Assembly (NCBI GenBank): GCA_038109055.1
Contig: JAYNIM010000001.1
Location: forward strand, 427,365 to 491,364
Direction: 5' to 3'
DNA from: a bacterium
GTDB taxonomy: Bacteria > Margulisbacteria > Marinamargulisbacteria > GCA-2716485 > JAYNIM01
DNA: 64,000 bases
The notes under the pieces are model-generated. The model saw nothing but the letters and a program-made list of their open reading frames with translations. It had not been told where the DNA came from and searched no databases. Positions 2,913 through 30,350 of the stretch are shown piece by piece (position 1 is the stretch's first letter; the number at the start of each line of letters is the position of its first letter). The position numbers and the translations under genes were made by a program.

Positions 2913-4086
2913 AATCTTTTAAAACGTCATTATATACAGATTCAATTTGGTTAAAAACAATATCATAACTAAAATTTTTAATTGCAAATTTTCGTATTTT
3001 TATAGAATCAAAATGCCCTCTTGTTTGTATTGCTTTTATTAACCCTTTTTCAAGTTCATCGATACTATCTGGCCCAACTATAATTCCTGTATCAGAAGTA
3101 ACGATATCTTCACTAACAACAGATGTAGTTAGAACAGGAACCCCCATTGCCATCGCTTCACAAGAAACGTTGGGATGGCCCTCAGCTAAACTAGCTAAAA
3201 CCAAAAAACTGGATTGTTCAAGCTCTTGCTTAACTTGATAATGAGACTGGGCCCCTAAAAAAATCACATTATGTTTTAGTGAATAAAATGAAACAAGTTT
3301 TTCCAACGCTTTACGATCTTGTCCGTCTCCAATAATTGTTAATAAAGTATCTGGATACATTTTGATGATTCTTGAAAATGCGTGAATCAATAAATGTACA
3401 CCTTTTACAGGTGTTAATCCGGCGACTAGTAAAAAACGCCGTTCTAATGCCGGCTTTTTTTTAAAACTTGGTTTAAAAAAATCAATATCAACAATGTTAG
3501 GAATAACTTTAAATTTTGTATTTGATTTAGGTAAATATGATTTTAACTTTGGCTCCATCACCTTACTCAAAGGCAAAATATAATCTGTATTTTCTAATCC
3601 ATATTTTAGTAGAGAATCATACCAGGGTTGGAATAAAGACTTCGCAAATTTAGTTTGGTCGGTGAATCTACCACGATGCTCCGATAAAACGTATGGAATG
3701 TTATAGCGCCCTTTTACTTTTCTTCCCACAATACTCCCCCAGATAGCACTGTGAACATGCATCAAATCAGGCTTACCTTTTTCATTAATATAGCGTTTGA
3801 CCAACTTCATCATTAATATTACCCATAGCTTTTGTTGTAAACGCGCTAACTTTGGCAATGACCAAGCATGCATTCTTATTACAAATAATCCATTTTCATT
3901 GTTAGCCGTGACTTTAAAAAAAGACGTAAACAGTGATTTTACATTTAAATTTCGTACTGAACGCTGCTCAACATAAACTATCCCAACTTTCCACCCCCGA
4001 CTCTTCATTTCCTCCCATCTTTTTCTAAAAAATGAACCGCCGTCATATGGAGGATACCAAGATGGAATAACTAAAATATGCTTCAT
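2902..4086 (-). CDS. Glycosyltransferase family 4
   Basis: LVIPSWYP, KGVHLLI, EGHPNVSCEAMAMGVPV (EX7E); start MKHILV at 4086 gives ATGA overlap with upstream gene. Confidence 0.9.
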   Translation of the reverse strand: MKHILVIPSWYPPYDGGSFFRKRWEEMKSRGWKVGIVYVEQRSVRNLNVKSLFTSFFKVTANNENGLFVIRMHAWSLPKLARLQQKLWVILMMKLVKRYINEKGKPDLMHVHSAIWGSIVGRKVKGRYNIPYVLSEHRGRFTDQTKFAKSLFQPWYDSLLKYGLENTDYILPLSKVMEPKLKSYLPKSNTKFKVIPNIVDIDFFKPSFKKKPALERRFLLVAGLTPVKGVHLLIHAFSRIIKMYPDTLLTIIGDGQDRKALEKLVSFYSLKHNVIFLGAQSHYQVKQELEQSSFLVLASLAEGHPNVSCEAMAMGVPVLTTSVVSEDIVTSDTGIIVGPDSIDELEKGLIKAIQTRGHFDSIKIRKFAIKNFSYDIVFNQIESVYNDVLKDYEN

Positions 4087-5981
4087 TTCATCCACTTATC
4101 AAGCCACATACTCAACATCAATACATGCCACATTTTTGTTGCGGAAAGCAAAGTTGGTTTATGTTTAAATTTTTGATATTGTAATTGTATAGCTTGGTTA
4201 TTAAAAATATCATATTTTTTTAATGTATTACCAAGAATATAATAGTCAAGTTGCTCCGACAATTCACCATTTAACCAAGTGTCTAAAGGAACCCCAAAGC
4301 CTTTTTTTGTTTGAATCATAAAATGTTGAGGAATATAATCATGGACAATATCTTTTAAAATGTATTTAGTTGTTCGATTATGAAGTTTAAAGTTTGATGG
4401 CAACTGAGCTACAAATTCAACAATTCGGTGATCCATTAGTGGCTCTCTACTTTCTAAGGATGTCGACATTGCAGCTCTGTCAACTTTTTGCAAAATATCA
4501 TCGGTTAATCCAATTTTAAAGTCAATGGCTAAAAATTTGTTTATTGCATCGTTTGAGTTATTTAGTTTATCAAACTGGTGGTAATTGGTCTCATAATGAT
4601 CAATATCTTTTTGTAAAAAAATATCTTCTATCTCATTTGGCATAAATATTGATGGTTCTAATTTAAATTCATATAACTCATCTAGAGTTTTAATTTGAGT
4701 TAATGATTGAAGTCTTGAAATACGTTCAGAAATTAACCCCAATTTCGAAATTCCATTAATTCCTACTTTTGTCAAACTAGGTGCTAGTTTATTTAAATAG
4801 AAAATAGACTTAAATAAGTTTAGTCGCTTTGTATAACGATTTATATATCCGCAAAAAATTTCATCTCCACCATCAGCTGATAATGCAACTTTCACATATT
4901 TTTTTGCTAGCCGACTCACAAGAATTGTTGGAACTGCTGAAGAGTCTGCAAATGGTTCATCATATATCGTTGCTAATTCTGGTAAAATAGCTAACGCTTC
5001 TTTTTCTGAGCATATTTGTTGATGGTGATTCGTGCCTAAATACTCAGCAATTCTTTGTGCATCCGCAGTCTCATCCGTTTCTCTATTAAACCCTATAGTA
5101 AACGTATTAATCTTTTGTGATGCGTTAGATTGCAGTAACGCTGCAACTAAAGAGCTATCGTAACCTGAACTCAAGAATATCCCCACTGGTACATCTGATA
5201 TCATTCGAAGGTTACAAGCTTCTATCAATTTAGTCTTTAGTATCGATTTAGCTTCATCATAACTAATGTCTAATTTTGGCTTGTTATAAAAATCAAATGA
5301 ATCCCAATATTTTGTATATTCAGTTTGTTTTGTTTTTAAATTTATTTTAAGAAAATGCCCAGGTTCAATTTTAAAGCAATTTTTAAACACTGTATAAGGG
5401 GCAGGAATAAATGAATATTTGAAATATAATGCAAGTGCCGATAAATCAAGCTCTTTTTGAAATATCGGAGCTCTCATTAGCGCCTTTAGTTCAGAACCAA
5501 ATAAATAGGTACCTCCTTGATTTGAGTAAAAAAAAGGTTTAACTCCTGATCGATCTCGACAAAAATACACTTCTTGTTTTGATTCATCCAGGATTACAAA
5601 AGAAAACATGCCTACAAAACGATGTAAACAATTAATTCCCCATTTGATATATGCGTTGAGAAGTACTTCTGAGTCAGAATTAGAATTGAATTTAAACCCT
5701 AATTTTTCTAATTCTGTTCGAATTTCTTTAAAGTTATAAATTTCTCCATTGTAGACAGCTGTCACATTTGCATCTGCATTACTTATTGGTTGATGGCCAT
5801 TTTTGGATAAATCCAAAATTGATAATCGTTTATGGCCCAAACCAATTGTTATGTTTTCAAATGTTTTAAAATAATGTCCGGTATCATCTGGACCACGATG
5901 ATGCAAAGTTTCAGTCATAGAAATTAATGATGACTTATCTAACCTATTTGAAAAATCTATAAAACCTATTATGCCACACAT
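4083..5981 (-). CDS. asnB: Asparagine synthase (glutamine-hydrolysing) family amidotransferase, polysaccharide-locus type
   Basis: MCGI N-terminus, HRGPDD, RLSILDL, NGEIYNF, SSGYDSS, SADGGDE; GAGG RBS upstream. Confidence 0.9.
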   Translation of the reverse strand: MCGIIGFIDFSNRLDKSSLISMTETLHHRGPDDTGHYFKTFENITIGLGHKRLSILDLSKNGHQPISNADANVTAVYNGEIYNFKEIRTELEKLGFKFNSNSDSEVLLNAYIKWGINCLHRFVGMFSFVILDESKQEVYFCRDRSGVKPFFYSNQGGTYLFGSELKALMRAPIFQKELDLSALALYFKYSFIPAPYTVFKNCFKIEPGHFLKINLKTKQTEYTKYWDSFDFYNKPKLDISYDEAKSILKTKLIEACNLRMISDVPVGIFLSSGYDSSLVAALLQSNASQKINTFTIGFNRETDETADAQRIAEYLGTNHHQQICSEKEALAILPELATIYDEPFADSSAVPTILVSRLAKKYVKVALSADGGDEIFCGYINRYTKRLNLFKSIFYLNKLAPSLTKVGINGISKLGLISERISRLQSLTQIKTLDELYEFKLEPSIFMPNEIEDIFLQKDIDHYETNYHQFDKLNNSNDAINKFLAIDFKIGLTDDILQKVDRAAMSTSLESREPLMDHRIVEFVAQLPSNFKLHNRTTKYILKDIVHDYIPQHFMIQTKKGFGVPLDTWLNGELSEQLDYYILGNTLKKYDIFNNQAIQLQYQKFKHKPTLLSATKMWHVLMLSMWLDKWMK

Positions 5982-6299
5982 TAGTTATTACCTCTTAAAC
6001 ATCTTAAAGAGTAACATTAGTATGTTTTAATTTTATAGAGATGAAAAGGATCTTTTTTTAATTCTTTAGGTAATCTAATAAGCAATTCTAATTGATTTAG
6101 GTTAACAACAAGTCCCAGTCTAACTAAAAATCTGTTTATTTTAATGAATTTTAACGTATTTAAATAGAAAGAATTTAGCACAGCGCCAATTTACCATACC
6201 TCTTTATTAATGTCTAAATCAACAGCCCTATAAACCCGTCGTTATTGTTCACAGATCCTTGTTTAACGCTGGGCAAATATCACAAAACCTCTATATTTT

Positions 6300-7607
6300 T
6301 TACTCCATTTTTTCACTACATATTTTCTGAAGCGTTTGCTCAAATATTTGTTTATATCCCTTACACTCACTGATTGGATGTGCAAACTCTTGTAATTTAT
6401 TAGAATAATCCATGTATTTTTTACTATGACCTTGAAGAATATCTGACAGAGCGATTCTCATTGATTCCTTACTGTTACAAATATTTGGATAATCATCTAA
6501 TAATAAATGTTTTAAATGTGGATTTTTAAGTGTTTGATTTATGTGCAATGTATCTGGCCAATTATTATCAAAACTAAATTTAATTTGTATAATTGGGGTC
6601 TTCGTAAATGATGCTTCAAGCACAATGGTTGAACTAAAGTTAATGACACACAATGCATGTGATAATTGATTCTTTTTCTTTACCAAATCATCTTCAGTCA
6701 ATTTATAAGGATCCCATTTACTTGGAATGGGGTCTAGTTTTATACCTGATTCAACTAAATTAGTATACCAATTCATATCAATAATAAAGGGATATGGACG
6801 CACAATTAATTCTACTGATGAGTCAATTGTATTCAACATATTTTTTATTCCTAGAATGTTTATCACTTCCTGTTCAACATGCTCTCTTATTCCATGAGCA
6901 CAGACGTATAGAACATACTTTTGTTTTTTGTACTCATCTATATCTCTACTTTTATTTTCAATTAAATAATCAAATTGAAGAGGGCCTACAATATGAATTT
7001 TTGATTCCGATATCATATGATATTTTTTTAAATCATTTTTATTTTCTTTATTCCACACAAAATAATAATCAGCTCCTTTAATAGATTCGTTATCCTTCAT
7101 AGGATTATCCCAACTATATATCCAATTAATAATTTTCAATTTTCTTCGTCTTGCTTCATGCACAATGAAATATGATTTAATTGATATTGGAGAATATAAA
7201 AAATAAGAATAATTATTTAAAAAATCATACTCTTTATATGTAAATGGATATACCCATTTATAAATTTGTGCAACAGAACAATTAAAAAAAATCATTTTCT
7301 GATAATATTTTTTAATAAATAGCATTATTTTCATGATTAAATTAGTGTTGTAGAATTGCCTTTTATTTCTATACAATCTATTGTTTGTGTTTAACGGCTT
7401 AACTAATAGACATTTTAGTAACCCTCTAAATATTCGTCTTTTCTGTTTTGGTTTAATTAAAAATGTTTTAAGAATTTTGTGATATCGTTCATATGTTCTT
7501 TGATCATGTGTCACAATCGTTAAATCAACATTATTTTTCAGATGATCTATTAACTGTGCTTTCTCAAGCCGATTTCCGTCATCAATAAAATATAACACCT
7601 TAGTCAT
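6300..7607 (-). CDS. Hypothetical GT-B-like protein, candidate sialyl/nonulosonate transferase
   Basis: YSWDN, FVWN, IVGPLQFD, VRPYP, SSTIVLEA motifs resemble TagF-like/GT-B proteins; 8-nt overlap with neuA. Confidence 0.5.
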   Translation of the reverse strand: MTKVLYFIDDGNRLEKAQLIDHLKNNVDLTIVTHDQRTYERYHKILKTFLIKPKQKRRIFRGLLKCLLVKPLNTNNRLYRNKRQFYNTNLIMKIMLFIKKYYQKMIFFNCSVAQIYKWVYPFTYKEYDFLNNYSYFLYSPISIKSYFIVHEARRRKLKIINWIYSWDNPMKDNESIKGADYYFVWNKENKNDLKKYHMISESKIHIVGPLQFDYLIENKSRDIDEYKKQKYVLYVCAHGIREHVEQEVINILGIKNMLNTIDSSVELIVRPYPFIIDMNWYTNLVESGIKLDPIPSKWDPYKLTEDDLVKKKNQLSHALCVINFSSTIVLEASFTKTPIIQIKFSFDNNWPDTLHINQTLKNPHLKHLLLDDYPNICNSKESMRIALSDILQGHSKKYMDYSNKLQEFAHPISECKGYKQIFEQTLQKICSEKME

Positions 7608-8271
7608 TTTGTGCTATCAGTGCTTCTGCTATATAAAAATCGTCTTCTTCATCAATATCGAGACTATCTATTTTTGACATTTCATAGCCGATTATTTTCC
7701 CCCCAAAGATGGCGTAGTTTAATTGCTCTCGTTTTGTTATATAGATAGCCGCACCGTTTCGTGCCAAATAATTAGGTTTATCTTGACGTCTAAGTTTATA
7801 ATTTTGAACACAATTTACAATATAAGAACCTTCTACTTTCATCATAGCCTCTGGAACCATATTGTGAGGAACTTTAACTACCGACACTAAGCTATCTGCG
7901 TGTTCATCTTTTTCGAATAAAGAAATCGCTGCATTGATATGTTTATATGTACGTAATGGTGACGTAGGTTGTAGAGTGATGATCGCATTATATTGTTCTG
8001 CATATTGCCCCAAGGCATGTTGTATTACTGGTAAGGTTGGCGTATCATCTTTTGCCAATTCTGATGGACGCATAATGACTGAAACACCCAAGCTTTCTGC
8101 AATGCTGGCTATTTCTTTATCATCAGTAGATACGACCACCTCATTAATTATTGATTGCTGTGCCGCCTCAATGGTGTACTGTATTAATGGCTTTCCATTC
8201 AATAACTTTCTGTTTTTATATTTGATCCCCTTTGATCCGCCTCTGGCAGGAATTATGGCTAAATACTTCAT
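7600..8271 (-). CDS. neuA: CMP-N-acylneuraminate synthetase
   Basis: IIPARGGSKGIKYKN, VSTDD, LQPTSPLR, RRQD, NGAAIY, SLDIDEEDDF. Confidence 0.92.
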   Translation of the reverse strand: MKYLAIIPARGGSKGIKYKNRKLLNGKPLIQYTIEAAQQSIINEVVVSTDDKEIASIAESLGVSVIMRPSELAKDDTPTLPVIQHALGQYAEQYNAIITLQPTSPLRTYKHINAAISLFEKDEHADSLVSVVKVPHNMVPEAMMKVEGSYIVNCVQNYKLRRQDKPNYLARNGAAIYITKREQLNYAIFGGKIIGYEMSKIDSLDIDEEDDFYIAEALIAQND

Positions 8272-9423
8272 TTAATACGTAATGGTTTTTTGAATACTTA
8301 CAGAATCAGTTGCTAAAATAGTCGCAATTTTTGTTCCAGCGCTTCCATCCCCGTACAATGGACTTGATTTGTATTTTCCATGTTCCATTTGTTTAAGTAT
8401 GGCATCTTTAATTTGCTGCTTATCATACGTCACATCCATCACATTATCAGATCGATCTCTTTGGTTTTGTCGTGTTCCAATATTTACTACTGGGGTTCCA
8501 ATAAAGGCCCCTTCTCTAACACCAGAGCTACTATTTCCAACCAAACACTGCGTTTGATTCATTAAATGAATGTAGGTTGCCGTTGGTAAATTTTTAAATA
8601 CTTGCAGCCATGTTGGTTTGTGGGTTTCTCTAAATGATCGAATACCTTTTGAAATATCATCACTACCCGCATCTGCATTTGGCCATAAAAGTATCGTTGG
8701 TATTTTTATATCATTGAGTGCATTCAAGGTTTCTTCAATTTGGCGACGATTATCACCAAACTCTGTTGTAACGGGATGTTGAGATACAAGTAAGAAAGGC
8801 TGATTAAAATCAATACCCATCCCTACTCCTTTGTAACCTTTGAACAACTCATTTAAATCGCCTTTATTTTTTAACTCGATTCGAATTAAATCCATTCGTG
8901 GACACCCCACGTTATACACATGCTTTGGATCCTCTCCCATCTTTATAATACGTTTTTTTGCCTCTTCATTAGCTGGAAAATGATAATGAGCAAACTTTGT
9001 TATAGCATGACGAATACTTTCATCTATAGTACCAGTGACTTCCCCTCCCATGGTATGCGCAACCGCAATATTCATGTAAGCGGCTGCAATCGTGACAGCC
9101 ATTACTTCAAATCGATCGCCTACAACAACGACCACATCCGGTTTTAAATTATTAAAGATCATCGACATTTCTATCATGCCTAGACCTGTTGATTTTGCCA
9201 TAGTTGTTGGATTCTCTCCTTCAACTAGGTTATGAAAGGTAAAATCTGGTTTAAAGCCATCTTCTCGTATTAATTGATCCACATTCCCAAAACGTTCTAA
9301 GATTGCAGATGCCCCAGTAACCACCTGAAGTGTTAACTTAGGATGTTTTTTTATGGCTCTCATGACAGACTTAATACTACTGTAGTTAGCTCTTGAACCA
9401 ACAAAAACACATATTTTTTTCAT
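8272..9423 (-). CDS. neuC: UDP-N-acetylglucosamine 2-epimerase (hydrolysing)
   Basis: GSRANYS, GDRFE, HTMGGEVTGTIDESIRHAITK, GNSSSG, GTRQ. Confidence 0.92.
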   Translation of the reverse strand: MKKICVFVGSRANYSSIKSVMRAIKKHPKLTLQVVTGASAILERFGNVDQLIREDGFKPDFTFHNLVEGENPTTMAKSTGLGMIEMSMIFNNLKPDVVVVVGDRFEVMAVTIAAAYMNIAVAHTMGGEVTGTIDESIRHAITKFAHYHFPANEEAKKRIIKMGEDPKHVYNVGCPRMDLIRIELKNKGDLNELFKGYKGVGMGIDFNQPFLLVSQHPVTTEFGDNRRQIEETLNALNDIKIPTILLWPNADAGSDDISKGIRSFRETHKPTWLQVFKNLPTATYIHLMNQTQCLVGNSSSGVREGAFIGTPVVNIGTRQNQRDRSDNVMDVTYDKQQIKDAILKQMEHGKYKSSPLYGDGSAGTKIATILATDSVSIQKTITY

Positions 9424-9444
9424 TTAATTAGTGTATACAAATTA

Positions 9445-11298
9445 TTAAGTCGCGTCTATTTTGAAGCTAATTTCTGAAATAATTTGTTTTTTTTGAACAT
9501 CCGTCAAGCCATGCTTATTCATTGCAGTTTCAAGAGACTCTGAATGAGCGAGCTCACAGCTATGACAATATAAACCAAAACGATTTAAAACTTTAACCGA
9601 ATCACACCCATATGTTCTTATTATTTCTTCTACTGAAGTGTTTAAGAGTACACCCCCCTCCTTTAAATTTTTATCTGATTTTTTATAATAAGGAGCTTGC
9701 AATAATCGCCAAAAGCCAACTTTATATTCATCGTTTTCTCTAAAAAAACGACACCAATATCCAACAAATGCTTCATCCCATGACAACTTCTCATCTAAAA
9801 TTAGATTAAATATGCAAATTGGAATGTTAATTTGTATGTGCAAATCTTCTAATTGCACCGGCCCTAAATATCGAAGCTTACAATCTTTGATTTCTATATA
9901 TAAGGTTTTTAATGTCTCATAGTCCATATTTGTCAAATTAAATCTAATAGTAGTATTTTCACAAAACTTAATTTGAGGACAATTATTTAAATCTAAAAAA
10001 TACTTCCTGGACACTTCCTCATTAAACACATTATTTCTCTTAAAAAGCTTATTAAATTCACGACTATTAAACTCTTTAATTGCAAACTTTTTCAGAATAT
10101 CTTTGTTATAAATTTCTTTTGACAGTTTTTTCTTTCTCTTTATTTTTAATTTTTCAACATTCCACTCATCACCTGGAAACCAGTCAATTACTTTAAAGGA
10201 CTCCTTATTTAGTCTCTCTTTAATATCAAATATATTGTTTCTTATGATTTTCTCTAGAAATTCAATGTGAGTTGGATGACAAAATGTTATATGACTCGCA
10301 AAAGGAACAAAATATTTTGCGCCATATATATCCATTGCATGCCTAATTTGTTCAATACGTCCATTATTTGAATCTACCATAAATTGATGAGCATCTTTAT
10401 TTGAAACACTATTCCAAGTTAAGGGGTACCCCGAGGCTCCAAAAGAAAAAGTGGATGAAACAACATCAACTGGAAATACTTTATTCACTAAATTTTGATT
10501 AATCCCGGCATCGTTTAAATTTAGCCATTTAAAACTACCAAATTGAAAAAGTATTATACTATCATTCCAAACGCCCTTTGGCTCGAAAAAGGTCACTTCA
10601 AGATCTGACTCTATAGACATTTTTTTCCCAAAACTTGGAATCAAAATATGTTTAAATCCTAATTTTTCCAAACTATTTTGCATACGTTGATTTGGAAAAT
10701 CAGGAATTAATATAGGAATATTTTTATTAATCTTTTTTAACGTAGGAATATGAAAGTGATCAGAATGTTCATGTGTAATTATTATATAATCAACAACAAT
10801 TTCTTCTGGAAGTATAGTATTTTTAGGGTATTGATACCATGATCCCAAAAATGCCGGGCCACTTAACCAAGGGTCTGTCATAATTTTTGTCCCTTTATAA
10901 TTAAACTCTATGCACGCATGTGAATGAAGTACACAATTTAAACCTGACACCCAGTGATCCGATTTTTTTTTAATATCATTTTTTCTAATTAAGTCAGTAT
11001 TTTTAACAAAAAGCTCATTCCCTTCCTTTAAAATAGGAACATTTCTTAACTCTTGATTTTCAATATTTTTTGACTTTCCTGTATGCTTATCAAATTTCCA
11101 AAAATGTACTGGACATACTAAACAATCATCATTCAATACAACTTTTCCACCCATATGCGGACATTGATTAGATAAAAGTTGAAAGCCACGCTCTTCTGAG
11201 TAAACTAAAAAATAATTTTCTTTGTAAATTTTAATATTTAAAGGACACTGTTCTTTAATTTCTGTATTAGCAATTTTAATTTTTTCGAATTGCGTCAT
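9445..11298 (-). CDS. CMP-N-acetylneuraminate hydroxylase (CMAH) homolog: Rieske + metallo-beta-lactamase fold + C-terminal CxxC (DUF1858-like) domain
   Basis: Rieske CPH...CPVH; SHAC...DPWLSGPAFLGSW; THEHSDH; GASGYPLTW; PFAS...HP; SWDEAFVGY...FW, all colinear with animal CMAH as I recall it; tail GLYCHSCELAHSESL. Confidence 0.85.
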   Translation of the reverse strand: MTQFEKIKIANTEIKEQCPLNIKIYKENYFLVYSEERGFQLLSNQCPHMGGKVVLNDDCLVCPVHFWKFDKHTGKSKNIENQELRNVPILKEGNELFVKNTDLIRKNDIKKKSDHWVSGLNCVLHSHACIEFNYKGTKIMTDPWLSGPAFLGSWYQYPKNTILPEEIVVDYIIITHEHSDHFHIPTLKKINKNIPILIPDFPNQRMQNSLEKLGFKHILIPSFGKKMSIESDLEVTFFEPKGVWNDSIILFQFGSFKWLNLNDAGINQNLVNKVFPVDVVSSTFSFGASGYPLTWNSVSNKDAHQFMVDSNNGRIEQIRHAMDIYGAKYFVPFASHITFCHPTHIEFLEKIIRNNIFDIKERLNKESFKVIDWFPGDEWNVEKLKIKRKKKLSKEIYNKDILKKFAIKEFNSREFNKLFKRNNVFNEEVSRKYFLDLNNCPQIKFCENTTIRFNLTNMDYETLKTLYIEIKDCKLRYLGPVQLEDLHIQINIPICIFNLILDEKLSWDEAFVGYWCRFFRENDEYKVGFWRLLQAPYYKKSDKNLKEGGVLLNTSVEEIIRTYGCDSVKVLNRFGLYCHSCELAHSESLETAMNKHGLTDVQKKQIISEISFKIDAT

Positions 11299-12274
11299 TT
11301 TTTTTGTAATTACAGGTAAGTTTTATTCCAATTAAATCTTGATATTCTTTTGCACTCAAACCGTCCATTGGCTTCTTAAATGTCAAATCTTCCTCTTTAA
11401 TAACCGTACCTTTAGGTAAATCTCTTGCGGCTACAATCATTTTCTCAAAGGTTTTTTTCATTTCTACTAAATCTTTTGCCTTTTGATCTTTATCAACGTC
11501 ATGAGTCAAGGCTTTCTCTACCTCTCTAATGGCAACAACCAATGATTTAAATTCATCTGGTTCTGAAGAAAACTGAGCATCGCTTCCATACATTTTTTTA
11601 GACAATGTAAAGTGTTTTTCTATAACAGTTGCACCTTTGCATACAGCTGCTATAGGAATTGCATTTCCACGTGTATGATCAGAATAGCCTATGTTGTGCA
11701 TAGGATATTTTTTTCTTAAGTCATCTAAGATATTCAACCCTGCATTTTTAGGCAAACACGGATAATCTGACGTACATTGAAGAATGGTTAAATCAGCACA
11801 ACCATGTTTTGTTAGATAATTTACTGCTTCGTCAATTTCTTTATAGGTACTCATACCTGATGATAATAAAACTGCTTTTTTTGTTTGTGCTATTTTTTTA
11901 AGCATGGGTAAGTTTGTCACTTCACCAGAGGCTATTTTATATGTTTTTACTTTTATTGCTTCTAGTAGGGCAACGGCTTCATTAGAGAAAGGCGAAGCTA
12001 AAAATTCTAGTTCACAGTCTTTTTCGGCGTATTCTTTTAGTTTGCGCCAATTTTCTTGTGTAAAAGAGGTTCGTTCAAAGTACTCTCTACGGGTTTCGTC
12101 TTTAAAATACGGTGGGTTTGGAGCTGAGTCTAAACTTTCAGCATCAAAAATATGTATTTGAAACTTTACTGCATCGACACCACATTCTGAAGCGGATTTG
12201 ATAAACTGCTTCGCTAAGCCTAGTGATCCTTCATGTGTGTTGCCTATTTCGGCGATAATTTTTACTACTGACAT
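11276..12274 (-). CDS. neuB: N-acetylneuraminate (nonulosonate) synthase
   Basis: IIAEIGNTHEG, DAVKFQ, KIASGE, QCTSDYP, GYSDHT, IEKHFT, C-terminal SAF/AFP-like domain. Confidence 0.92.
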   Translation of the reverse strand: MSVVKIIAEIGNTHEGSLGLAKQFIKSASECGVDAVKFQIHIFDAESLDSAPNPPYFKDETRREYFERTSFTQENWRKLKEYAEKDCELEFLASPFSNEAVALLEAIKVKTYKIASGEVTNLPMLKKIAQTKKAVLLSSGMSTYKEIDEAVNYLTKHGCADLTILQCTSDYPCLPKNAGLNILDDLRKKYPMHNIGYSDHTRGNAIPIAAVCKGATVIEKHFTLSKKMYGSDAQFSSEPDEFKSLVVAIREVEKALTHDVDKDQKAKDLVEMKKTFEKMIVAARDLPKGTVIKEEDLTFKKPMDGLSAKEYQDLIGIKLTCNYKKNDAIRKN

Positions 12275-12360
12275 TTAATATTTTTTATATTGTATGTAAC
12301 GTTGAATTGCTGCAAAATTAGTTTGCTTAGTAAAACATATTTTGTTATTTTTTACTATGT

Positions 12361-14022
12361 ATGTCTATCATAAAAAAGATATTGAAAAGATTCAAAAATA
12401 AAATTCATAAAAAAAGAGTCGTTCCAAAATTAAATCTCATAAACGATTACGCTCATAAAGAATATTATAATCAATATTATTCAAAAAATGCAGAAACTAC
12501 CAAAATTTTAAAAAAACTTAGTTCCGAATATAAGGCTAAGCCTCTTGACAGTAATCTTAAAATTCTATCTCTCATCGCTGTACCCGGAAATTTTACTCAG
12601 ATATATTATCAACAATTTATAGCTTATGCATTAGCATTAAGAGATTGTAATATTTCTCACTTAACTTGTTCTGGCTCTGAAAACCAATGTGCGAGTGGCA
12701 GAATACTACAGCCCTCTCAATCATGTTCAGATTGTTTAAAATATGGTCAAAATTTTCTTGATAACGTTGTTAACAATAACCAAATCAAATCTTATGCCGA
12801 CTTCAACCTTGATACTACTTTAACTTCAGAATTTGAAAAAATAGGGACATTATCTTTTGAAGAACTTAGAAAATATACTTATAAAAATATTATGTTTGGA
12901 AAATATATTGAAGAGGCTCTTAATGGTTATTTTCTAAATTGTCACCTCTCTCAAAATCCTATAGTAATACAAAAATTCAAAGAAATGTTAATTTATGATT
13001 TAACCGCATATAATGCTTTTATTAAATACCATCATCAGGAAACCTTTGATCGAGTCATTATGTGTGGTGGAGTTGGGCCTGGTTATAGTGGAATTTTAAA
13101 TGCGTGTAAACAAAGCAATATCCCTTGTTTAACTTGGGAAGTTTGGGAGGGAAACACATTAAATTCAGTTGTATGGACCAAAAACGATATTGCCTCTAAT
13201 TTTAAAGTTTTTAACAACAAAAAAGAATTAGATAATTATAGTATTGACCATACAAAGCAAAAAATGTGTACTGATTATTTAATGGAAAGAGTTAAGGGTA
13301 GTAAAAACACGCTATCTTATAATAACCAAAATACAACTTTAGAAAATGTAATTTCATCAAAATTTGGTAATATTTTTAATAAACCGTTCACCCTTCTTCT
13401 GACCACTGTTCCTTGGGATGCTAATTGTTTTAGAAAAGATCATCTATTTAAATCTCAATATTATTGGATATTAGAAACTATTAAATTTTTTAAAGAAAAA
13501 CCAGAGGAAACATTAGTTATACGTGCACATCCTGCAGAATCACATAAATCAGTTAACCCTTATCGATATACACAAGAAACGATACTTTCCTTTCTAAGGC
13601 AGCATATAGATGTACTCCCTGAAAATATTATTTTTATTGATTCCAATGATGATGTTAGTACTTACGCTCTTTTTCCTTATACTAAAGTGGCATTAATTTT
13701 TGCAACTACAACTATTTATGAACTTATCTATAATAATATTCCGGTTATATGTGCATCAAAAACTCATCATATAAATATGGGTATAAGCATAGACCCAAAA
13801 AACAAAAAAGAGTATTTCAATTTACTTGATAATATAGATTCTTTAAAAGTGACCGATGAACAAAAATCCCGTTCACTTAAATATGCTTATAAGTACTTAT
13901 TTGAACGAATGATTCCTTATTCACAAATATTAAATACACGCTGTCTAGATGATTTAAAGACTGGCTCGAATATTCATCTTGATAAAATTTGTAGAGATAT
14001 TATCGTTGCTAATAATACCTGA
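12361..14022 (+). CDS. Capsule polysaccharide biosynthesis protein (KpsS/Capsule_synth-like GT-B) with N-terminal 4-Cys motif
   Basis: VPWDA, IRAHPAE, TTTIYE...PVI motifs; C-x6-C-x11-C-x2-C near the N-terminus; divergent from neuB. Confidence 0.6.
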   Translation: MSIIKKILKRFKNKIHKKRVVPKLNLINDYAHKEYYNQYYSKNAETTKILKKLSSEYKAKPLDSNLKILSLIAVPGNFTQIYYQQFIAYALALRDCNISHLTCSGSENQCASGRILQPSQSCSDCLKYGQNFLDNVVNNNQIKSYADFNLDTTLTSEFEKIGTLSFEELRKYTYKNIMFGKYIEEALNGYFLNCHLSQNPIVIQKFKEMLIYDLTAYNAFIKYHHQETFDRVIMCGGVGPGYSGILNACKQSNIPCLTWEVWEGNTLNSVVWTKNDIASNFKVFNNKKELDNYSIDHTKQKMCTDYLMERVKGSKNTLSYNNQNTTLENVISSKFGNIFNKPFTLLLTTVPWDANCFRKDHLFKSQYYWILETIKFFKEKPEETLVIRAHPAESHKSVNPYRYTQETILSFLRQHIDVLPENIIFIDSNDDVSTYALFPYTKVALIFATTTIYELIYNNIPVICASKTHHINMGISIDPKNKKEYFNLLDNIDSLKVTDEQKSRSLKYAYKYLFERMIPYSQILNTRCLDDLKTGSNIHLDKICRDIIVANNT

Positions 14023-14202: not shown

Positions 14203-16131
14203 TTAACACTTTTTATGTTTTTCCTTTAGTTTCCTTTTATGTTTCACAAATACTATCAAATTTACAAGATTAATAAACTGAGAAGTCTCATTTTCATTTA
14301 ATTTTTTCTTTTGTCTTAACTCGCTAACTTTTAGTATATATGCCTTGATGGCTGGCGTTGATACGTGACTTAAAATAAATTCAAGTTCACTATGACACTG
14401 ATCCCATAGTTTCTGATTTAATTTCAAAAACTTGCTCGAAAAATTTGGTTTTTTTGTTTTATTTTTATTTTTATTTCGTATTGTTTTAATTAATTTATAA
14501 AATGCTGGAAAAAAGGCTAGTCCCCGTATCAACGTTTTCTTTATATTTTGTATTATATAATGAGTATATGTATAGCCAGATTTTTTTGCAGCTTTTTTAA
14601 GGTAATATGTATACGATTTTGGAAGAACCTCATTCACATATTGAAAATAATATTGCTTTGGACTGAAGGCTTCTGTAATTGATACAATAAAATCACTAAA
14701 ATAGTGATGTAATAAATTGTTGTTAATAGCCAAATAAAATGTGTTTTTAAATACAGAGCTGTATGAAGAAAGTTGAAGTTCAGTATTATAATTATATATA
14801 AAATAACGATGTATCCTCAATAAATGATTAAAATAATTGATGTCTTTTTTCTTAATGGTTGAACCTTCAATCTTTTTAAGATCATCTACTGATAATATAT
14901 GCTTAAATAAGCTATTAATATTTTTATCATGAGCATGTTCGATTCCATCACATCTTCCATAATGTTTCTTAAATAACGTATAAGGAAACTGTTGTGCATT
15001 TTTAAGTTCATAAAACACTGATCCATATAAAAATGTAAAAAAGGGACTCATTTTTTTGAACTTAAAAAATACTTTATTTTGAAGAAACCTTTGTAAATTA
15101 CATAAAAAGAAATTTGTAAATATGATATTTTTGAGACAATATTTAAAATATGCTCGATACATACTAATTCCCTTGTTTACAGATGATCCCGTGCAATGAA
15201 TCATATATGAACCATCACAGTTCTCACCTGTTACAAATAACGCACTGTCCTTTTTTGATGTAAGATAATAACAATTTTTTTCAAGTGGAAGGGGCTCAAT
15301 ATACTGAGAGTACATATCATATAACTTATCTTCAGTCATATTTTTAATTTTTGTCTGATCTATATAAGTTAATGGAATATTAAGTACTTTTGTCAGTAAA
15401 TACGTTATATTATTTTGATACCTAGAATTTTTAAACGTGTAAGCTAACATATTTGCCCCTGCTTTGTGAAAAGCTACTAGCATCAAAACAGAGTCAATTC
15501 CTCCAGATAACAATATATTTATTGGGGTGTCTTTTTTTGCCTGAGTTATTAACTGTGCTGTTACATCAAGTCTTTTTTTAAATTCATTATATGACTTTTT
15601 ACCATGTTGACACTCCTTCGGCATTTTTTTGATATATGGGTTTTGCCTTATATGCAAACCCTTTGAAATAATACATTCCATACCTCCTGGAACATTGAAT
15701 ATGTTATTAAACAAGGATGTAAATGGTAAATGTGGAATATCAGAACATACACTTTGATAAACTAAATACTCATTTAGTTCTATTATTTTATTTCTGGAAA
15801 TCAGATTATTGATATTTATATCAATATACAATTTTCCGTCGTTTTTATAATAATAAAAACCAGGCGTTGCTGTCGCATTAATGATGCGTATCTCTGAATC
15901 TTTCTTAATGATCAAATAATACTGTCCAACCGTATGCTGAATAAATGATAATAATCGTGAGTGACATGTATGATTTTCTAATATCCAACTGTAACTCTCA
16001 TCACTACTTTTTATACACTTTTCATAATATGCCCCATATAATTCTCCTATTAGGATAATAGATCCATCCTGTCTTATATTTTTACTTGAATCAACAGATA
16101 ATTTTAAATTAGATTCTATACAAACTTTCAT
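14203..16131 (-). CDS. Divergent asparagine synthase-like protein (PP-loop adenylating domain)
   Basis: LLSGGIDS and TGENCDG motifs; no N-terminal Cys-Gly-Ile. Confidence 0.6.
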   Translation of the reverse strand: MKVCIESNLKLSVDSSKNIRQDGSIILIGELYGAYYEKCIKSSDESYSWILENHTCHSRLLSFIQHTVGQYYLIIKKDSEIRIINATATPGFYYYKNDGKLYIDININNLISRNKIIELNEYLVYQSVCSDIPHLPFTSLFNNIFNVPGGMECIISKGLHIRQNPYIKKMPKECQHGKKSYNEFKKRLDVTAQLITQAKKDTPINILLSGGIDSVLMLVAFHKAGANMLAYTFKNSRYQNNITYLLTKVLNIPLTYIDQTKIKNMTEDKLYDMYSQYIEPLPLEKNCYYLTSKKDSALFVTGENCDGSYMIHCTGSSVNKGISMYRAYFKYCLKNIIFTNFFLCNLQRFLQNKVFFKFKKMSPFFTFLYGSVFYELKNAQQFPYTLFKKHYGRCDGIEHAHDKNINSLFKHILSVDDLKKIEGSTIKKKDINYFNHLLRIHRYFIYNYNTELQLSSYSSVFKNTFYLAINNNLLHHYFSDFIVSITEAFSPKQYYFQYVNEVLPKSYTYYLKKAAKKSGYTYTHYIIQNIKKTLIRGLAFFPAFYKLIKTIRNKNKNKTKKPNFSSKFLKLNQKLWDQCHSELEFILSHVSTPAIKAYILKVSELRQKKKLNENETSQFINLVNLIVFVKHKRKLKEKHKKC

Positions 16132-18029: not shown

Positions 18030-18701
18030 CTAAGAAACATAATCCCCATTATAATTAATCATTGCAACACTTCTGATACTCTTAACTTTGGCAAGCCTAT
18101 CTATTATTGATGTATCATTTCGTTTTTGTCTCATTTCTAATATCAGTTCTATTTCGTCATTTGTACGTATTTTTGATTTAATATTTAATTTTTTTAAACT
18201 CGCTAAAGCCTCGTCAATTTCAGCATTGTTTTTATTAGGATAATTTATAACTAATAGATAAGGTAAGCGTCTTAAAATCTTAATCTTAGTTATTGCAAAC
18301 AGTAAGCCGCCTATAACAAGACTGCCAATAATGGAAACCTTATATAAACCAACGCCGTTTGCCATGCCTATACTAATAGCCCAAAACATAAATACAGTGT
18401 CTAAAGAGTCTTTGATGGCTGTACGAAAACGAACAATCGATAACGCGCCAACCATTCCCAGAGAAAGTAAAAAGTTGGTGCTTATAGCCATAATAATTAA
18501 AGACGTAATGACAGCCACCATTATTAATGAAAGGTTGAAGCTCTTGGTATACAACACTCCTTGATACGTTTGTCTATAAATTGCGTATATAAACAAGGAA
18601 ATAATGACCGTTATAGTTAGTGATAAGGCTATATCCATGATAGTAAGATTAGTTGACAATGCAGAAGCAGAACTTTTAAAAGTTGATAATATTTCGTCCA
18701 T
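18030..18701 (-). CDS. DUF4956 membrane protein
   Basis: SLGMVGALSIVRFRTAIKD signature; start MDEIL at 18701 (TAATG overlap, GGAGG RBS). Confidence 0.85.
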   Translation of the reverse strand: MDEILSTFKSSASALSTNLTIMDIALSLTITVIISLFIYAIYRQTYQGVLYTKSFNLSLIMVAVITSLIIMAISTNFLLSLGMVGALSIVRFRTAIKDSLDTVFMFWAISIGMANGVGLYKVSIIGSLVIGGLLFAITKIKILRRLPYLLVINYPNKNNAEIDEALASLKKLNIKSKIRTNDEIELILEMRQKRNDTSIIDRLAKVKSIRSVAMINYNGDYVS

Positions 18702-19423
18702 TACTGATCCTCCCAAGGATTTTCTTTATAAAACTTTCTACAGATTGCATATTTTGAAATTGCTGAACGTGCACAATGTGAGCCGTCTAAAGCTTGCTTA
18801 ATAAATGCTGGTAAAAATTTTTCATATTTTACTTCCATAATAACTAAATGTTGATCGCAGGCACTGATAGTAAATGATTTTTTATCAAAAAGATCCTCAT
18901 TAGAGTAGCTAAGTTTTAAATTCTTGTCAAATGTCACCCTTACATTTCCCTGTTTAAATACATACGCTTCTCGCACATAATCTGTGATAATAACTGGTTT
19001 TAATAGCTGTGTTTTTTGAATGATTAAGAACTCATTCAGAAGTTCTTTTTTATCTGAAAGTTTCTTATTACTATGGTTAGAATTAACTAATAGGGATTCG
19101 TATTGCTTTCGATCTATTGATTGTGCCTGTTTAAAAATAAACTGATTATGCTTCCCTTTTTTTTCAAGTTTTATCACTGCATCGCTATGGTTGTATATTC
19201 TAATACGATATTTGTATCGATCTAGTACTCCCGATAGTTTTTCAAACAGCGCGGAGTTGTACATGTCATCAAAATAAAGACTTCTTAAATGATAATTACC
19301 ATCTTTGTCAGCATGCTGATCAGGTCTCATTAATAACTTTATACGTTGCTTTAAACAATGATATTGGTAATGACTAATAAAATATTTAACCTCATGCCTA
19401 AAAGTAACTTTTTTTTTAGTCAT
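18701..19423 (-). CDS. VTC (polyphosphate polymerase) domain protein, CYTH/TTM fold
   Basis: RHEVKY, RSLYFD, RYKYRIRIY, LEKK, YVREAY, RVTFD, MEVKY, SKY motifs. Confidence 0.88.
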   Translation of the reverse strand: MTKKKVTFRHEVKYFISHYQYHCLKQRIKLLMRPDQHADKDGNYHLRSLYFDDMYNSALFEKLSGVLDRYKYRIRIYNHSDAVIKLEKKGKHNQFIFKQAQSIDRKQYESLLVNSNHSNKKLSDKKELLNEFLIIQKTQLLKPVIITDYVREAYVFKQGNVRVTFDKNLKLSYSNEDLFDKKSFTISACDQHLVIMEVKYEKFLPAFIKQALDGSHCARSAISKYAICRKFYKENPWEDQ

Positions 19424-22133
19424 ACGCCATCCAGTTTAAATTTAGAAGCTTATCGATATCTTTAGCTGCCATAATTTGCTTATTGACCTTATTATCAGCT
19501 AACACAAATACTTTAGCTCCATTTTTTATACTGTGCTTCTGCTTAAGATCGTCACGGCTAATTCCGTACAATTTTGGCACGCCAAAAAAGTACTTTTTAA
19601 GATACATCTCTATTCCAATGGTATTATTCCTAAAAATATTTTTTTCGATGATCGTTTGAGAATTATCTTTAATTGTAATAGCGGATCTATTATTATCAAA
19701 TATGTTTTTTGATACGTATACTTTAGAACTTTCACCCACAGACATTCCCTTATCTAAAAATCCAGATATATAACAGTCTTTTACAATGATCTCCGCACCG
19801 CTAAGATCAAGCCCATCACCGTTAGGTTTTTGATTCGGAATTTTGGTTCCGGTGAATTTAAAGGTTGTATTGCTAACATGTCCATGTGACACATCTAAGT
19901 CTAGCTGATCAGCACTATTATCTAAAAAAGTATTATTTTTTAAATTTATTTTAGCATATTTTATATTTACCCCATCATCAGCAAAATTATGATGAATATT
20001 ACTGTGTTGAATACTGACATATTTATGTGAATATAATGATAGTGCCCCGCTTAAAAACTTTCCATTTACGGTTGCTTCACTCCCTCCAGAAATATCTAAA
20101 TAAGAAATTTCGCATTGGGTGGAATGTCTATCCCCTACCATTGCAACGACCCCAAAAGGATCTTTTCCTTGTTGATTTTGAATAACAATTGGGCTTTCTT
20201 TTGTTCCTCGTAGTTGTGTATTACCCTGAAATAATAGTGAGACACTAGGTCCCAAGGTGATGGTAACGCCTTCTTCTAGGGCTACTGCCACACCATGTGG
20301 AAAAACAATGGTTTTGGTTATTAGGTATGATCCTTTTTTGATCAAAATTTGTTTGTATCCTAATTTCACCATTGATAATTCTGGCGTATTTTTCATAAAA
20401 GATGTTATGTCAGTTACACGATGCTCTTTGCTTGAAAATCCAACTTCCTGACCAACATATGTGTGAATATTATTATCTTTGACTGGATGATTTGTGAGTG
20501 TATTTTTAAAGGTAATGGTTGTATTTTTCAACTTATATCCTTTTGGAAGGTCTAAAATCTCATACTTATATCGTCTTTTTTCAATATCTAGTTCTTCAGT
20601 CAACCCTAATTGATACAAGTGTGTGCTGAAAAATGAACTTAAATCTTGTGTTTTAGATTTTATTGGAAATCGGATAGTGCTTATTTTTTTTGTTTGCAGG
20701 TCTTTAATTCGTACTCTCCTTAGAGGTTGATTGCCCTCTAAAATAAAAGCGGTATTTTGAATTGCTGCGTTGCTATCTGGAACAATTTCTAGTCTTAGTT
20801 TGTTATTGTCTGGCCAAATATTTACATACATCATTGTGTAATTTAGGTAATGTTTTAATTTTGAAATATTATTTAAGATAATAGATTTTTCCTTATCTGC
20901 TTGTTTCTTATAATATTGTTCTTTTGGATCAATAGTTATCAGTGGAACAAACTCATTATAAACATTGTCAACAGTTTCTCGAATAAATGTCTCATCTTTT
21001 AAAAATTCAGCAATATATTTATTCCTTAAATTTCGATATGTATCAGACTCTATTAACTTTTTAAAAATAATATTGTTATCGTATTTATTTTTAAACATGT
21101 TATATCTATTGCCATAACTATACAGTTTCTTTTCAAAATTTGCTGCATAATTGTCGTATATTAATTCGTTCGCAGCTTCTATTCTAAGAAATGGAAAAAA
21201 TTTGCTGTTAGATGTGTTATATAAAAGCCGCATATTATCGCCGGAAAAAACATGTGAATTGCCATAAAATGTACGTAACGCATCTAACTTAGCGGTAAGA
21301 GGAATGTCCATGTGTACTGAAAGACTTTCATATGATGGCTGAGTGTACAACTGCCTATATCTCTCGAGTTGCCCCACTTGTTTTCCCGAAAAGTTCCTAA
21401 GTAAGGTATTTGAAAGTTCATTAATAAACGGAGTAATGTGTGTCTCATTATATTGATGTCCCCATGATTCTTTTGATTTGATTAAATCAACACCAGCCAT
21501 ATTGTTTTTCTCTAATAATGTTTTAGATAATTTTTCTTCTACTAAATAAAGGCCTTGATTAATCCCGTTAATCTTCAACTGACATAAAAATATATCGATA
21601 TCCCAACCAATAAAGTGTTTTAAAATTCGATAATTCACCAGTGTTGATAAGGGTAGTTGAGTGGGGATAATAAAAGAAAATCGTTTCATTTTTTTATGAT
21701 ACTGATCTTTTCTTAGTTTGATTGCATAGGATTTCTTTTCATCTAAATAATGGGAGCCATGCAATTTTATTTTTGCCTTTATCTCCTTTTCGTTAATATA
21801 TATCTTACATTTTTGATAGCTATTTTCACTGTTGTTGTGATTATCAATGTATATTCGATGAAAGGGATTTTTATTGTATTTATTTGCTGCAAGAGTAATT
21901 GTATCCTTCATATTGGCATAAGCCTTTTTAGGAAGTTTAATTGAATAAGTTGGAATTGATGTTAACTTATATTTTAAAATAAATGTTCTTAGTTCTGTTG
22001 ATATAAATCTATATAGTTGGATTGGAGGAGCGCCTTTCACGTGACAGATACTTATTACAAGTACAGAAAAGAAGGTCATTCCAGATATCAATAAAATATA
22101 TCCTATTAGAAATATCTTTTTGAATTTATTCAT
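19416..22133 (-). CDS. CotH-kinase family protein with C-terminal right-handed beta-helix
   Basis: N-terminal hydrophobic anchor; KIKLHG, KKSYAIK, INGINQGLYLVEE, H...DNMRLLYN; C-terminal DDGVN/DQLDLD/GDGLDLSG/DKGMSVGE repeats. Confidence 0.75.
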   Translation of the reverse strand: MNKFKKIFLIGYILLISGMTFFSVLVISICHVKGAPPIQLYRFISTELRTFILKYKLTSIPTYSIKLPKKAYANMKDTITLAANKYNKNPFHRIYIDNHNNSENSYQKCKIYINEKEIKAKIKLHGSHYLDEKKSYAIKLRKDQYHKKMKRFSFIIPTQLPLSTLVNYRILKHFIGWDIDIFLCQLKINGINQGLYLVEEKLSKTLLEKNNMAGVDLIKSKESWGHQYNETHITPFINELSNTLLRNFSGKQVGQLERYRQLYTQPSYESLSVHMDIPLTAKLDALRTFYGNSHVFSGDNMRLLYNTSNSKFFPFLRIEAANELIYDNYAANFEKKLYSYGNRYNMFKNKYDNNIIFKKLIESDTYRNLRNKYIAEFLKDETFIRETVDNVYNEFVPLITIDPKEQYYKKQADKEKSIILNNISKLKHYLNYTMMYVNIWPDNNKLRLEIVPDSNAAIQNTAFILEGNQPLRRVRIKDLQTKKISTIRFPIKSKTQDLSSFFSTHLYQLGLTEELDIEKRRYKYEILDLPKGYKLKNTTITFKNTLTNHPVKDNNIHTYVGQEVGFSSKEHRVTDITSFMKNTPELSMVKLGYKQILIKKGSYLITKTIVFPHGVAVALEEGVTITLGPSVSLLFQGNTQLRGTKESPIVIQNQQGKDPFGVVAMVGDRHSTQCEISYLDISGGSEATVNGKFLSGALSLYSHKYVSIQHSNIHHNFADDGVNIKYAKINLKNNTFLDNSADQLDLDVSHGHVSNTTFKFTGTKIPNQKPNGDGLDLSGAEIIVKDCYISGFLDKGMSVGESSKVYVSKNIFDNNRSAITIKDNSQTIIEKNIFRNNTIGIEMYLKKYFFGVPKLYGISRDDLKQKHSIKNGAKVFVLADNKVNKQIMAAKDIDKLLNLNWMAYD

Positions 22134-26991: not shown

Positions 26992-27003
26992 GATTAATAA
27001 TAA

Positions 27004-28341: not shown

Positions 28342-28430
28342 AATTAAACTCTATACTTTTTTATAAAACTTAATATGTAAATTTCACGACAATATTTTAC
28401 TAATTGATAATATTTTAAAAAATCTTTAAT

Positions 28431-30348: not shown

Positions 30349-30350
30349 AA

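Follow-up and report, generated by a model that had tools for sequence, protein, structure and literature searches.

An oxygenase of the CMAH/NamH family encoded within a bacterial neu operon, a candidate for N-glycolyl nonulosonate synthesis

The 64,000-nucleotide stretch of a marinamargulisbacterial genome analysed here (the window; contig JAYNIM010000001.1 of assembly GCA_038109055.1, positions 427,365–491,364) carries at 6300–12274 a sialic acid-type operon in which a gene for a 617-residue Rieske/metallo-β-lactamase (MBL) protein lies between neuB and neuC. Judged by its sequence, the operon enzyme is a real, intact and uncharacterised variant of the known CMAH/NamH family. In the available sections of three papers (PMC2722178, PMC4819959, PMC6481270), both characterised members of this family convert an N-acetyl to an N-glycolyl group on a nucleotide sugar. 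We regard the formation of some N-glycolyl sugar by the operon enzyme as quite probable, and give an even chance to the specific conversion of cytidine monophosphate (CMP)-activated N-acetylneuraminic acid (CMP-Neu5Ac) to its N-glycolyl counterpart (CMP-Neu5Gc). The wider proposal, which we slightly favour, is that free-living bacteria make Neu5Gc de novo through mobile CMAH-family oxygenases of Rieske–MBL–CxxC architecture that plug into neuraminic acid (Neu) or legionaminic acid (Leg) operons; N-glycolyl nonulosonates would then be an old microbial invention, found also in bacterial and giant-virus sialylation cassettes, and not a deuterostome one.

Architecture and family placement of the oxygenase

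The protein consists of a Rieske domain (residues ~11–100), an MBL fold (~116–390) and a CMAH-like C-terminal domain extending to ~540. Residues 553–598, overlooked in an earlier note on this DNA, resemble the DUF1858/TIGR03980 CxxC domain, with scores below the curated cut-offs. Alignment to CMAH of the rodent Apodemus spans residues 30–534 with 117 identities in 531 columns (22%, E 9e-26); it is collinear and keeps all predicted metal ligands, and a profile of the protein's clade matched a CMAH-proximal profile with probability 100 over 512 columns. The CMAH motifs listed in the earlier note are genuine: CPH..CPVH, HAC..DPWLSGPAF, HEHSDH, GASGYPLTW (GASGFPMTF in the rodent) and WDE..G..R..FW all align. 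The protein thereby shows the N-terminal Rieske domain and full-length collinearity, including the C-terminal WD..G..R..FW region, of a CMAH-type enzyme, together with the Rieske CxH..CxxH and the MBL fold with H, DPW, HxHxDH, D and D ligands that mark the broad CMAH/NamH family. Residues C46, H48, C62, H65, H127, D142, H176, H178, D180, H181, D246 and D263 are invariant in 48/48 rows representing animals and three prokaryote-rich clades. The Rieske ligands, identical in animals and in the clade of proteins sharing the CxxC domain (the DUF1858 clade), are invariant in 52/52 aligned members, and the MBL ligands are the same in animals, the DUF1858 clade and NamH. D246 is kept in all three of these groups and absent from 4/4 other-MBL outgroup rows. 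Intact relatives exist at 81% and 63% identity.

An AlphaFold2 model of the protein (mean predicted local distance difference test score, pLDDT, 86) was compared with solved structures, which cover its MBL and Rieske domains only. The MBL fold matched UlaG-type proteins, NAPE-PLD, CmlA and FrsH (Z 19–21 over 209–240 residues, root-mean-square deviation (rmsd) 2.5–4.8), with hydrolases and the di-iron hydroxylases CmlA/FrsH tied in Z, and the Rieske domain gave Z 11.3 over 100 residues (rmsd 3.4). PDB sequence and fold searches returned no CMAH or NamH structure; the best sequence matches were CmlA and FrsH (E 8e-6, residues 126–206). Likeness to these two di-iron β-hydroxylases (Z 19–20, ~240 residues, rmsd 4.8) is confined to the MBL domain; CmlA and FrsH act on carrier-bound amino acids and are not known to contain a Rieske domain. 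Atlas clusters named CMAH, bacterial and chordate, and one named "putative UDP-MurNAc hydroxylase" matched at 0.95–0.96. Misannotation of a UlaG-type hydrolase was ruled out by the Rieske and two further domains, by the full-length collinearity with CMAH and by the four other-MBL rows, which branch apart. The protein thus escapes the grouping with non-CMAH MBL hydrolases that the earlier note had named as fatal to its proposal.

With a eukaryote-like match as bait we fetched 119 further proteins, most of them named animal CMAH. Trees were built on the MBL and C-terminal part that the family members have in common. The first tree contained 63 of 82 aligned rows (19 were left out for speed) and was midpoint-rooted; two further trees, both including outgroups, drew on subsets of 43 and 40 rows, the 43-row one being a quick tree. 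Three groups emerged: one unites animal CMAH with sequences from an alga and giant viruses and with two prokaryote-rich groups, the second is the DUF1858 clade, and the third joins NamH to Rieske-less proteins. In unrooted trees the DUF1858 clade lies between CMAH and NamH. The 617-residue protein belongs, as far as its sequence tells, to the CMAH/NamH family in the broad sense and lies outside the narrow animal-type clade, so that the kinship with animal CMAH proposed in the earlier note holds at the level of the family and fails at that of the clade. A C-terminal G[LMF]xCxxC motif occurs in 120/120 of the clade members listed and in 0/119 of the animal-search matches; among 120 listed homologues, 31 carry the automatic Joint Genome Institute (JGI) name "CMP-N-acetylneuraminate monooxygenase". 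Culturable bacteria represented among the homologues include Brevibacillus parabrevis, Alkalicoccobacillus murimartini, Salinibacter ruber, Paenibacillus sp. and Lysinibacillus sp. Against an animal profile of 18 sequences the protein scored 121 bits, versus 81 bits against a NamH profile of 3 sequences, and the C-terminal motif of its clade, WDE..G.W..R, compares with WDD..G.Q..R in animals, NamH being different. Two closer relationships were ruled out: that of nearest bacterial sister of animal CMAH, by the trees and profile rank, and that of NamH orthologue, by domain order. In place of the NamH arrangement (MBL – SCP2_Rv3818 – C-terminal Rieske), the protein has an N-terminal Rieske domain and no PF25451 match at E 0.01.

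The host genome encodes a second family member, a Rieske-less protein of 476 residues isolated amid housekeeping genes (L019:10789-12219; G000:C2:138789-140219). The MBL ligands persist in such Rieske-less forms, which elsewhere recur beside glycan genes.

The operon, its predicted sugar and the genomic context of the clade

Five open reading frames (ORFs), all on the minus strand, form the operon in the transcription order neuB, hydroxylase gene, neuC, neuA and a gene for a GT-B (glycosyltransferase B)-like protein. neuB (11276–12274) encodes a 332-residue nonulosonate synthase with a SAF domain (PF03102, E 1.8e-77), and the hydroxylase gene (9445–11298) the 617-residue CMAH/NamH-family oxygenase (Rieske and Lactamase_B matches). 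neuC (8272–9423) specifies a 383-residue, GNE-like hydrolysing 2-epimerase of uridine diphosphate N-acetylglucosamine (UDP-GlcNAc) (Epimerase_2, TIGR03568); neuA (7600–8271) a 223-residue CMP-nonulosonate synthetase (PF02348, CTP_transf_3, E 1.7e-28); and the last gene (6300–7607) a 435-residue GT-B-like protein with weak Epimerase_2 and TIGR04396 matches, a candidate nonulosonate transferase. The tight coupling described earlier was reproduced exactly from the ORF coordinates: neuB and the hydroxylase gene overlap by 23 nt, 21 nt separate the latter from neuC, neuC and neuA abut with a 0-nt gap, and neuA overlaps the GT-B-like gene by 8 nt. Promoter and terminator scans gave chance-level counts (38 vs 35.5 and 3 vs 2.5, respectively).

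The stretch sits on contig C1 of a 1.8-Mb genome that is 93% complete. Most of it is present in three estuary metagenome runs of one study, of which one may be its source. Contigs of run X1 tile 5500–13000 with zero differences, an agreement that is not independent, as X1 may be that source and its pieces overlap by fewer than 31 bases. An assembly artefact was ruled out by the recurrence of the same gene order in two metagenome loci (L075 and L094).

Within the phylum, the full-length hydroxylase gene was found in the host only (1/146 genomes searched). The same neuC type occurs in one other phylum genome, G041, in which neuB (76%) is followed, after a 50-nt gap, by neuC (87%), neuA (68%) and an unlike gene; its contig lacks the hydroxylase. 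Likewise, a Rhizobium plasmid combines the same NeuB, NeuC and NeuA types with a distant relative of the 435-residue protein and carries no hydroxylase. Because both modules do without it, the hydroxylase gene behaves as an accessory tailoring gene and an optional insert of the neuB-neuC-neuA module.

The sugar made by the module was assessed from its three enzymes. NeuC scored 409 bits against TIGR03568, which describes hydrolysing enzymes (cut-off 236), and ranked human GNE (4zht, 260 bits) above a diacetylbacillosamine epimerase (232 bits), a comparison of similarity only, which supports the UDP-GlcNAc type. The NeuC copy of the Leg cluster described below shows the reverse order (GNE 165 bits, diacetylbacillosamine epimerase 258 bits). 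The best PDB match of NeuA was CMP-Neu5Ac synthetase 6ifd (133 bits), and its PseF score stayed below the cut-off (141 < 206). In a tree, NeuB formed its own clade with sequences from L184, L075 and L152, apart from the LegI and PseI of the host, and its Q-x-H motif is common to Neisseria SiaC and absent from PseI 8h2c and two LegI rows, which makes it a candidate sugar marker only. Family scans found no 4,6-dehydratase or aminotransferase gene in the operon, and comparison of the 12.7-kb G041 contig with the window proteins showed neither there, barring one epimerase-like ORF downstream.

The host genome holds two further nonulosonate synthases besides the operon NeuB, one in the Leg cluster and a PseI on contig C4. 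The Leg cluster (24590–37348 of the window, 12–25 kb from the operon) encodes LegB and LegC, both above cut-off, a formyltransferase, the synthase, a PtmE-like protein, LegG, WbuX/HisH/HisF-like amidation proteins, a cytidylyltransferase and a PtmA-like short-chain dehydrogenase/reductase, a gene set that suggests N-formyl and acetamidino tailoring. A complete pseudaminic acid (Pse) core of PseB, PseC, PseG and PseI, all above cut-off, lies at L181:8212-18260 (G000:C4). Three nonulosonate pathways are thus present in a 1.8-Mb genome. The GNE-like NeuC, the separate synthases for Leg and Pse, and the lack of dehydratase and aminotransferase genes in the operon favour N-acetylmannosamine (ManNAc) and Neu5Ac, and the operon likely makes CMP-Neu5Ac.

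To examine the context of related genes, we used a clade-specific DNA pattern, which retrieved at least 120 metagenome stretches, 80 of them with flanks; genome and viral matches were added. After leaving out the host genome itself, one Rieske-less locus, two duplicates and 18 loci shorter than 1.5 kb, 39 clade loci were kept. Genes of the neuA/B/C type occur in 15/39 of these listed loci and in 13/22 of those with at least 3 kb of flank, as against 0/38 chance loci. The chance loci are pattern matches lacking the gene and do not sample glycan clusters at random; the difference is therefore an enrichment over background and not over other glycosylation genes. Clustering of 27 loci at 60% identity gave 11 clusters, of which 7 are linked to neu genes.

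L075 repeats the order neuB-hydroxylase-neuC with a 41%-identical hydroxylase, and L094 reads hydroxylase-neuC-x-neuA. In L022:4388-9743 and L092:5643-10333 the hydroxylase accompanies NanE, a short SAF-less NeuB and a GT29 sialyltransferase, and in L021:109-4736 it accompanies NanE, a short SAF-less NeuB and NeuA; L021 and L022 are viral contigs. neuA is the nearest partner of the hydroxylase gene in L021, L022, L047, L057, L071 and L102. A scan of genome contigs yielded 2 true members among at least 16 loci in the matches listed, and surveys of 301 genomes around genome G061 and 301 around G063 revealed no new full-length member, only shorter relatives below 200 bits. Phage records gave no match for the hydroxylase, and plasmid records only NamH-type and Rieske-less relatives.

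Proposed reaction and competing explanations

In the route we propose, NeuC would cleave UDP-GlcNAc to ManNAc, NeuB would condense ManNAc with phosphoenolpyruvate and NeuA would then yield CMP-Neu5Ac. From this substrate, O2 and two electrons, the hydroxylase would form CMP-Neu5Gc by attack on the N-acetyl methyl group, with the Rieske cluster relaying electrons to a carboxylate-rich di-iron site of the MBL domain (H127, D142, H176, H178, D180, H181, D246 and D263). The fused CxxC domain could, speculatively, substitute for cytochrome b5 as redox partner or aid metal loading, and the 435-residue protein would pass Neu5Gc onto a surface glycan. The host genome encodes a heme-copper oxidase, and O2 is therefore plausibly available. 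Its one NAD_binding_1 match presumably belongs to a respiratory NqrF-type subunit.

A number of observations weigh against CMP-Neu5Ac as the substrate and against so close a parallel with animals. At only 22% identity to CMAH, the protein ranks 149/274 on the animal profile among the proteins from outside the animal search, its 121 bits comparing with 290–640 bits for the proximal group, and animal CMAH has far nearer kin among the other prokaryotic and the giant-virus homologues. The DUF1858 clade, with a support of 97–99 in the Shimodaira–Hasegawa-like approximate likelihood ratio test (SH-aLRT), falls outside the CMAH-proximal clade (95–100) in all three trees, and its sister group depends on the root: the CMAH-proximal group under midpoint rooting (92 SH-aLRT), NamH under outgroup rooting (90) and neither in the third tree; in an approximately unbiased (AU) test, a grouping with CMAH was not rejected (p 0.56). 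NeuB remains below both cut-offs (TIGR03569, 345.8 < 399.65; PseI, 253 < 340), ties between PseI (168.6 bits) and Neisseria SiaC (165–166 bits) in the PDB, and has no characterised member in its clade within the sequence set used. Four of the 11 locus clusters lack a neu gene, and in 2 of the 7 linked ones it lies 5–7 kb off. In L002/L033 the hydroxylase gene sits inside a complete Leg cluster with LegB and LegC above cut-off, which holds the only NeuB found in genome G061, and in L076 it stands beside LegC and LegG. Six further loci (L067:6127-12432, L097:7784-13874, L034, L040, L052 and L059) have it directly upstream of pgk, in a gap-pgk-tpi-secG setting where visible and between gap and pgk in L034; no neu gene is in view in these six, and in two of them the gene kdtA for the 3-deoxy-D-manno-octulosonic acid (Kdo) transferase lies upstream. 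No cytochrome b5 (PF00173) was found in the 93%-complete host genome, in a search whose control gave a match in 1/14. Finally, no Pfam family exceeded its cut-off in 10/10 members of the family of the 435-residue protein, and the protein had no PDB match.

Since the clade also occurs in full Leg clusters and in neu-free settings, homology alone cannot give the substrate, and reading it from likeness to CMAH, as had been done earlier, is not upheld. Whether homologues consistently sit in neu clusters, a check named in the earlier note, has a mixed answer: a majority of the listed loci with sufficient flank are neu-linked, and some members lie in Leg clusters or beside kdtA.

One alternative, which we consider unlikely but not negligible, keeps the N-acetyl to N-glycolyl chemistry and changes the nonulosonate: NeuB might make a product other than Neu5Ac, or the enzyme might act on CMP-Leg or CMP-Pse from the other clusters of the genome. 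The embedding of clade members in Leg clusters, the Leg cluster 12–25 kb away, the full Pse cluster on C4 and the NeuB scores all fit this possibility, as does a 350-Da, possibly N-glycolyl Leg of Tannerella forsythia UB4, whose structure was left unsolved and for which no hydroxylase was named in the sections available of that report (PMC5378307). In contrast, translational coupling joins the hydroxylase gene to neuB, a GNE-like neuC follows after 21 nt, and the gene lies outside the Leg and Pse clusters, in an operon without the dehydratase and aminotransferase that either sugar requires.

An improbable alternative is a different reaction, either hydroxylation of a CMP-ulosonate, Kdo-like ones included, at a carbon of its ring or side chain, for instance, or hydrolysis or deacylation by an enzyme that retains its Rieske domain. 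Consistent with this, one cluster of relatives adjoins kdtA without an adjacent neu gene, Kdo has no N-acetyl group, and the closest solved folds include hydrolases and the C–H β-hydroxylases CmlA/FrsH. However, the genome of one relative of the kdtA- and pgk-linked type (G062) carries neuB elsewhere, a hydrolase would not need the invariant Rieske ligands, and both characterised relatives of full architecture attack the N-acetyl methyl group.

Still less probable is that the enzyme acts earlier, in a NamH-like manner, on UDP-GlcNAc (or ManNAc) and that the N-glycolyl group survives the NeuC, NeuB and NeuA steps, a route that would again end in Neu5Gc. NamH uses a UDP-sugar (available part of PMC2722178), the trees do not set the DUF1858 clade closer to CMAH than to NamH, and the hydroxylase gene immediately precedes neuC. 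Yet the domain order and C-terminal motif are CMAH-like and different from NamH, neuA is the nearest partner of the gene in several loci, and hydroxylation of bulk UDP-GlcNAc would presumably alter peptidoglycan and lipid A precursors. Very improbable, lastly, is a recently acquired passenger gene that is inactive for want of an electron donor, as its presence in a single phylum genome, the missing cytochrome b5 and the lone NAD_binding_1 match of apparently respiratory type might suggest: the ORF is intact with all ligands kept, it has intact relatives, and NamH works in bacteria.

Comparison with known systems and related cassettes

The likeness to animal CMAH (EC 1.14.18.2) extends to the Rieske–MBL–C-terminal order, the predicted metal ligands, GASG[FY]P, WD..G..R..FW and ~510 collinear residues. 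Unlike CMAH, the bacterial protein belongs to a separate clade, has the extra C-terminal G[LMF]xCxxC domain and is encoded in an operon beside its supply pathway; moreover, the mouse enzyme is stimulated by cytochrome b5 and its reductase (available part of PMC4819959), of which the former was not found in the host. With NamH (Rv3818-type UDP-N-acetylmuramic acid (UDP-MurNAc) hydroxylase), described as a distant homologue of CMAH in the accessible text of PMC6481270, it shares the MBL ligand set and the predicted chemistry, an O2-dependent N-acetyl to N-glycolyl conversion on a nucleotide sugar in a bacterium; the actinobacterial NamH makes UDP-N-glycolylmuramic acid using O2, as stated in the available part of PMC2722178. 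In contrast, NamH acts on a peptidoglycan precursor, no neu genes lie near NamH-type genes, and three plasmid-borne NamH-type proteins, assigned by PF25451 and not by assay, have a C-terminal Rieske domain. The operon follows the bacterial NeuC-NeuB-NeuA pathway in its hydrolysing epimerase, synthase, cytidylyltransferase and coupled transferase-like gene, and departs from it in the oxygenase between neuB and neuC, the divergent NeuB and a transferase-like protein outside the named sialyltransferase families.

This last protein matched only Epimerase_2 (E 2e-4) and TIGR04396 (27 bits, cut-off 125) in family scans. Its earlier designation as the transferase of the operon sugar has no sialyltransferase family match behind it in family scans or the PDB; from its position and GT-B-like signal we infer a transferase. 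It belongs to a small unnamed family with 11 homologues, none found in viruses, and distant relatives adjoin neuA or the hydroxylase gene in L152 and L054. In the family alignment a DDG motif is nearly invariant and an S-T motif invariant, both of which we take to resemble motifs of bacterial sialyltransferases. A single-sequence structure model (pLDDT 33.5) was unusable.

Prokaryotic CMAH homologues were reported in 2015 (Simakov; PMC4729200) and in 2017 (Peri; PMC5767959, with matches in 2 green algae and 60 prokaryotes). In the parts available, these accounts give no gene context, subclades or function, and they may include members of the DUF1858 clade. As far as the consulted text goes, a 2010 paper stated that Neu5Gc synthesis had not been demonstrated for any microbe and that only deuterostomes carry out the N-glycolyl step (PMC2916132), and a 2017 paper that N-glycolyl nonulosonates from bacteria had yet to be described (PMC5378307); the accessible portions of PMC8208679 and PMC8157484 mention no bacterial hydroxylase. 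Our literature search, with most subscription papers outside its reach, found no characterised bacterial CMP-nonulosonate hydroxylase and, among the papers listed, none with the DUF1858 domain. The earlier remark that no bacterial pathway is characterised therefore stands for CMP-nonulosonates and needs amendment for the family, as NamH is a characterised bacterial N-glycolylation enzyme acting on UDP-MurNAc.

If true, the Neu5Gc proposal would reverse the view that this sugar is not made by any microbe. It would then also matter for the question of where animal CMAH originated, for environmental origins of a human xeno-antigen and for the use of Neu5Gc as a marker of animals alone, and structural studies and enzymatic Neu5Gc synthesis would gain a soluble bacterial enzyme. 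The operon sets the enzyme beside its likely substrate supply, G041 provides a natural minus-hydroxylase control, and the old negative claim becomes directly testable. The significance is tempered by the record of prokaryotic homologues since 2015–2017 and by the fact that the 617-residue protein is not the closest to animals.

Viral contigs contain further cassettes. A large viral contig (L175:3051-13025) encodes a GT29 protein, a NeuA-NeuB-NeuC triple fusion, CMAH and a nucleotide-sugar transporter, and a giant-virus metagenome-assembled genome (L174:7923-13388) encodes NeuC, a weakly GT29-like protein, CMAH and a NeuA-NeuB fusion. Both CMAH proteins fall in the branch nearest animals; by sequence, these cassettes may be better Neu5Gc candidates than the window operon, and they bear on the origin of animal CMAH. 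A literature search on viral CMAH cassettes found nothing. In L168:781-11629 (also L166, L167 and L169-L172) and L173:8265-11611, an animal-proximal CMAH gene is found among glycosyltransferase genes in the neighbourhood of a major capsid gene of nucleocytoplasmic large DNA virus (NCLDV) type; neither neuA nor neuB is visible on the L166–L173 contigs. Two DNA patterns for the animal-proximal clade gave zero viral-contig matches, whereas an alignment search did find them.

Around the operon, large proteins without a Pfam or NCBIfam match are encoded on the neuB side at 12361–14022 (+), divergently transcribed from neuB, and at 14203–16131 (−). Several asparagine-synthase-like genes occur in the locus, among them 1353–2912 and 4083–5981. 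Within the glycan region, genes for a DUF4956 protein, a VTC-domain protein and a 905-residue β-helix protein stand in a row at 18030–22133.

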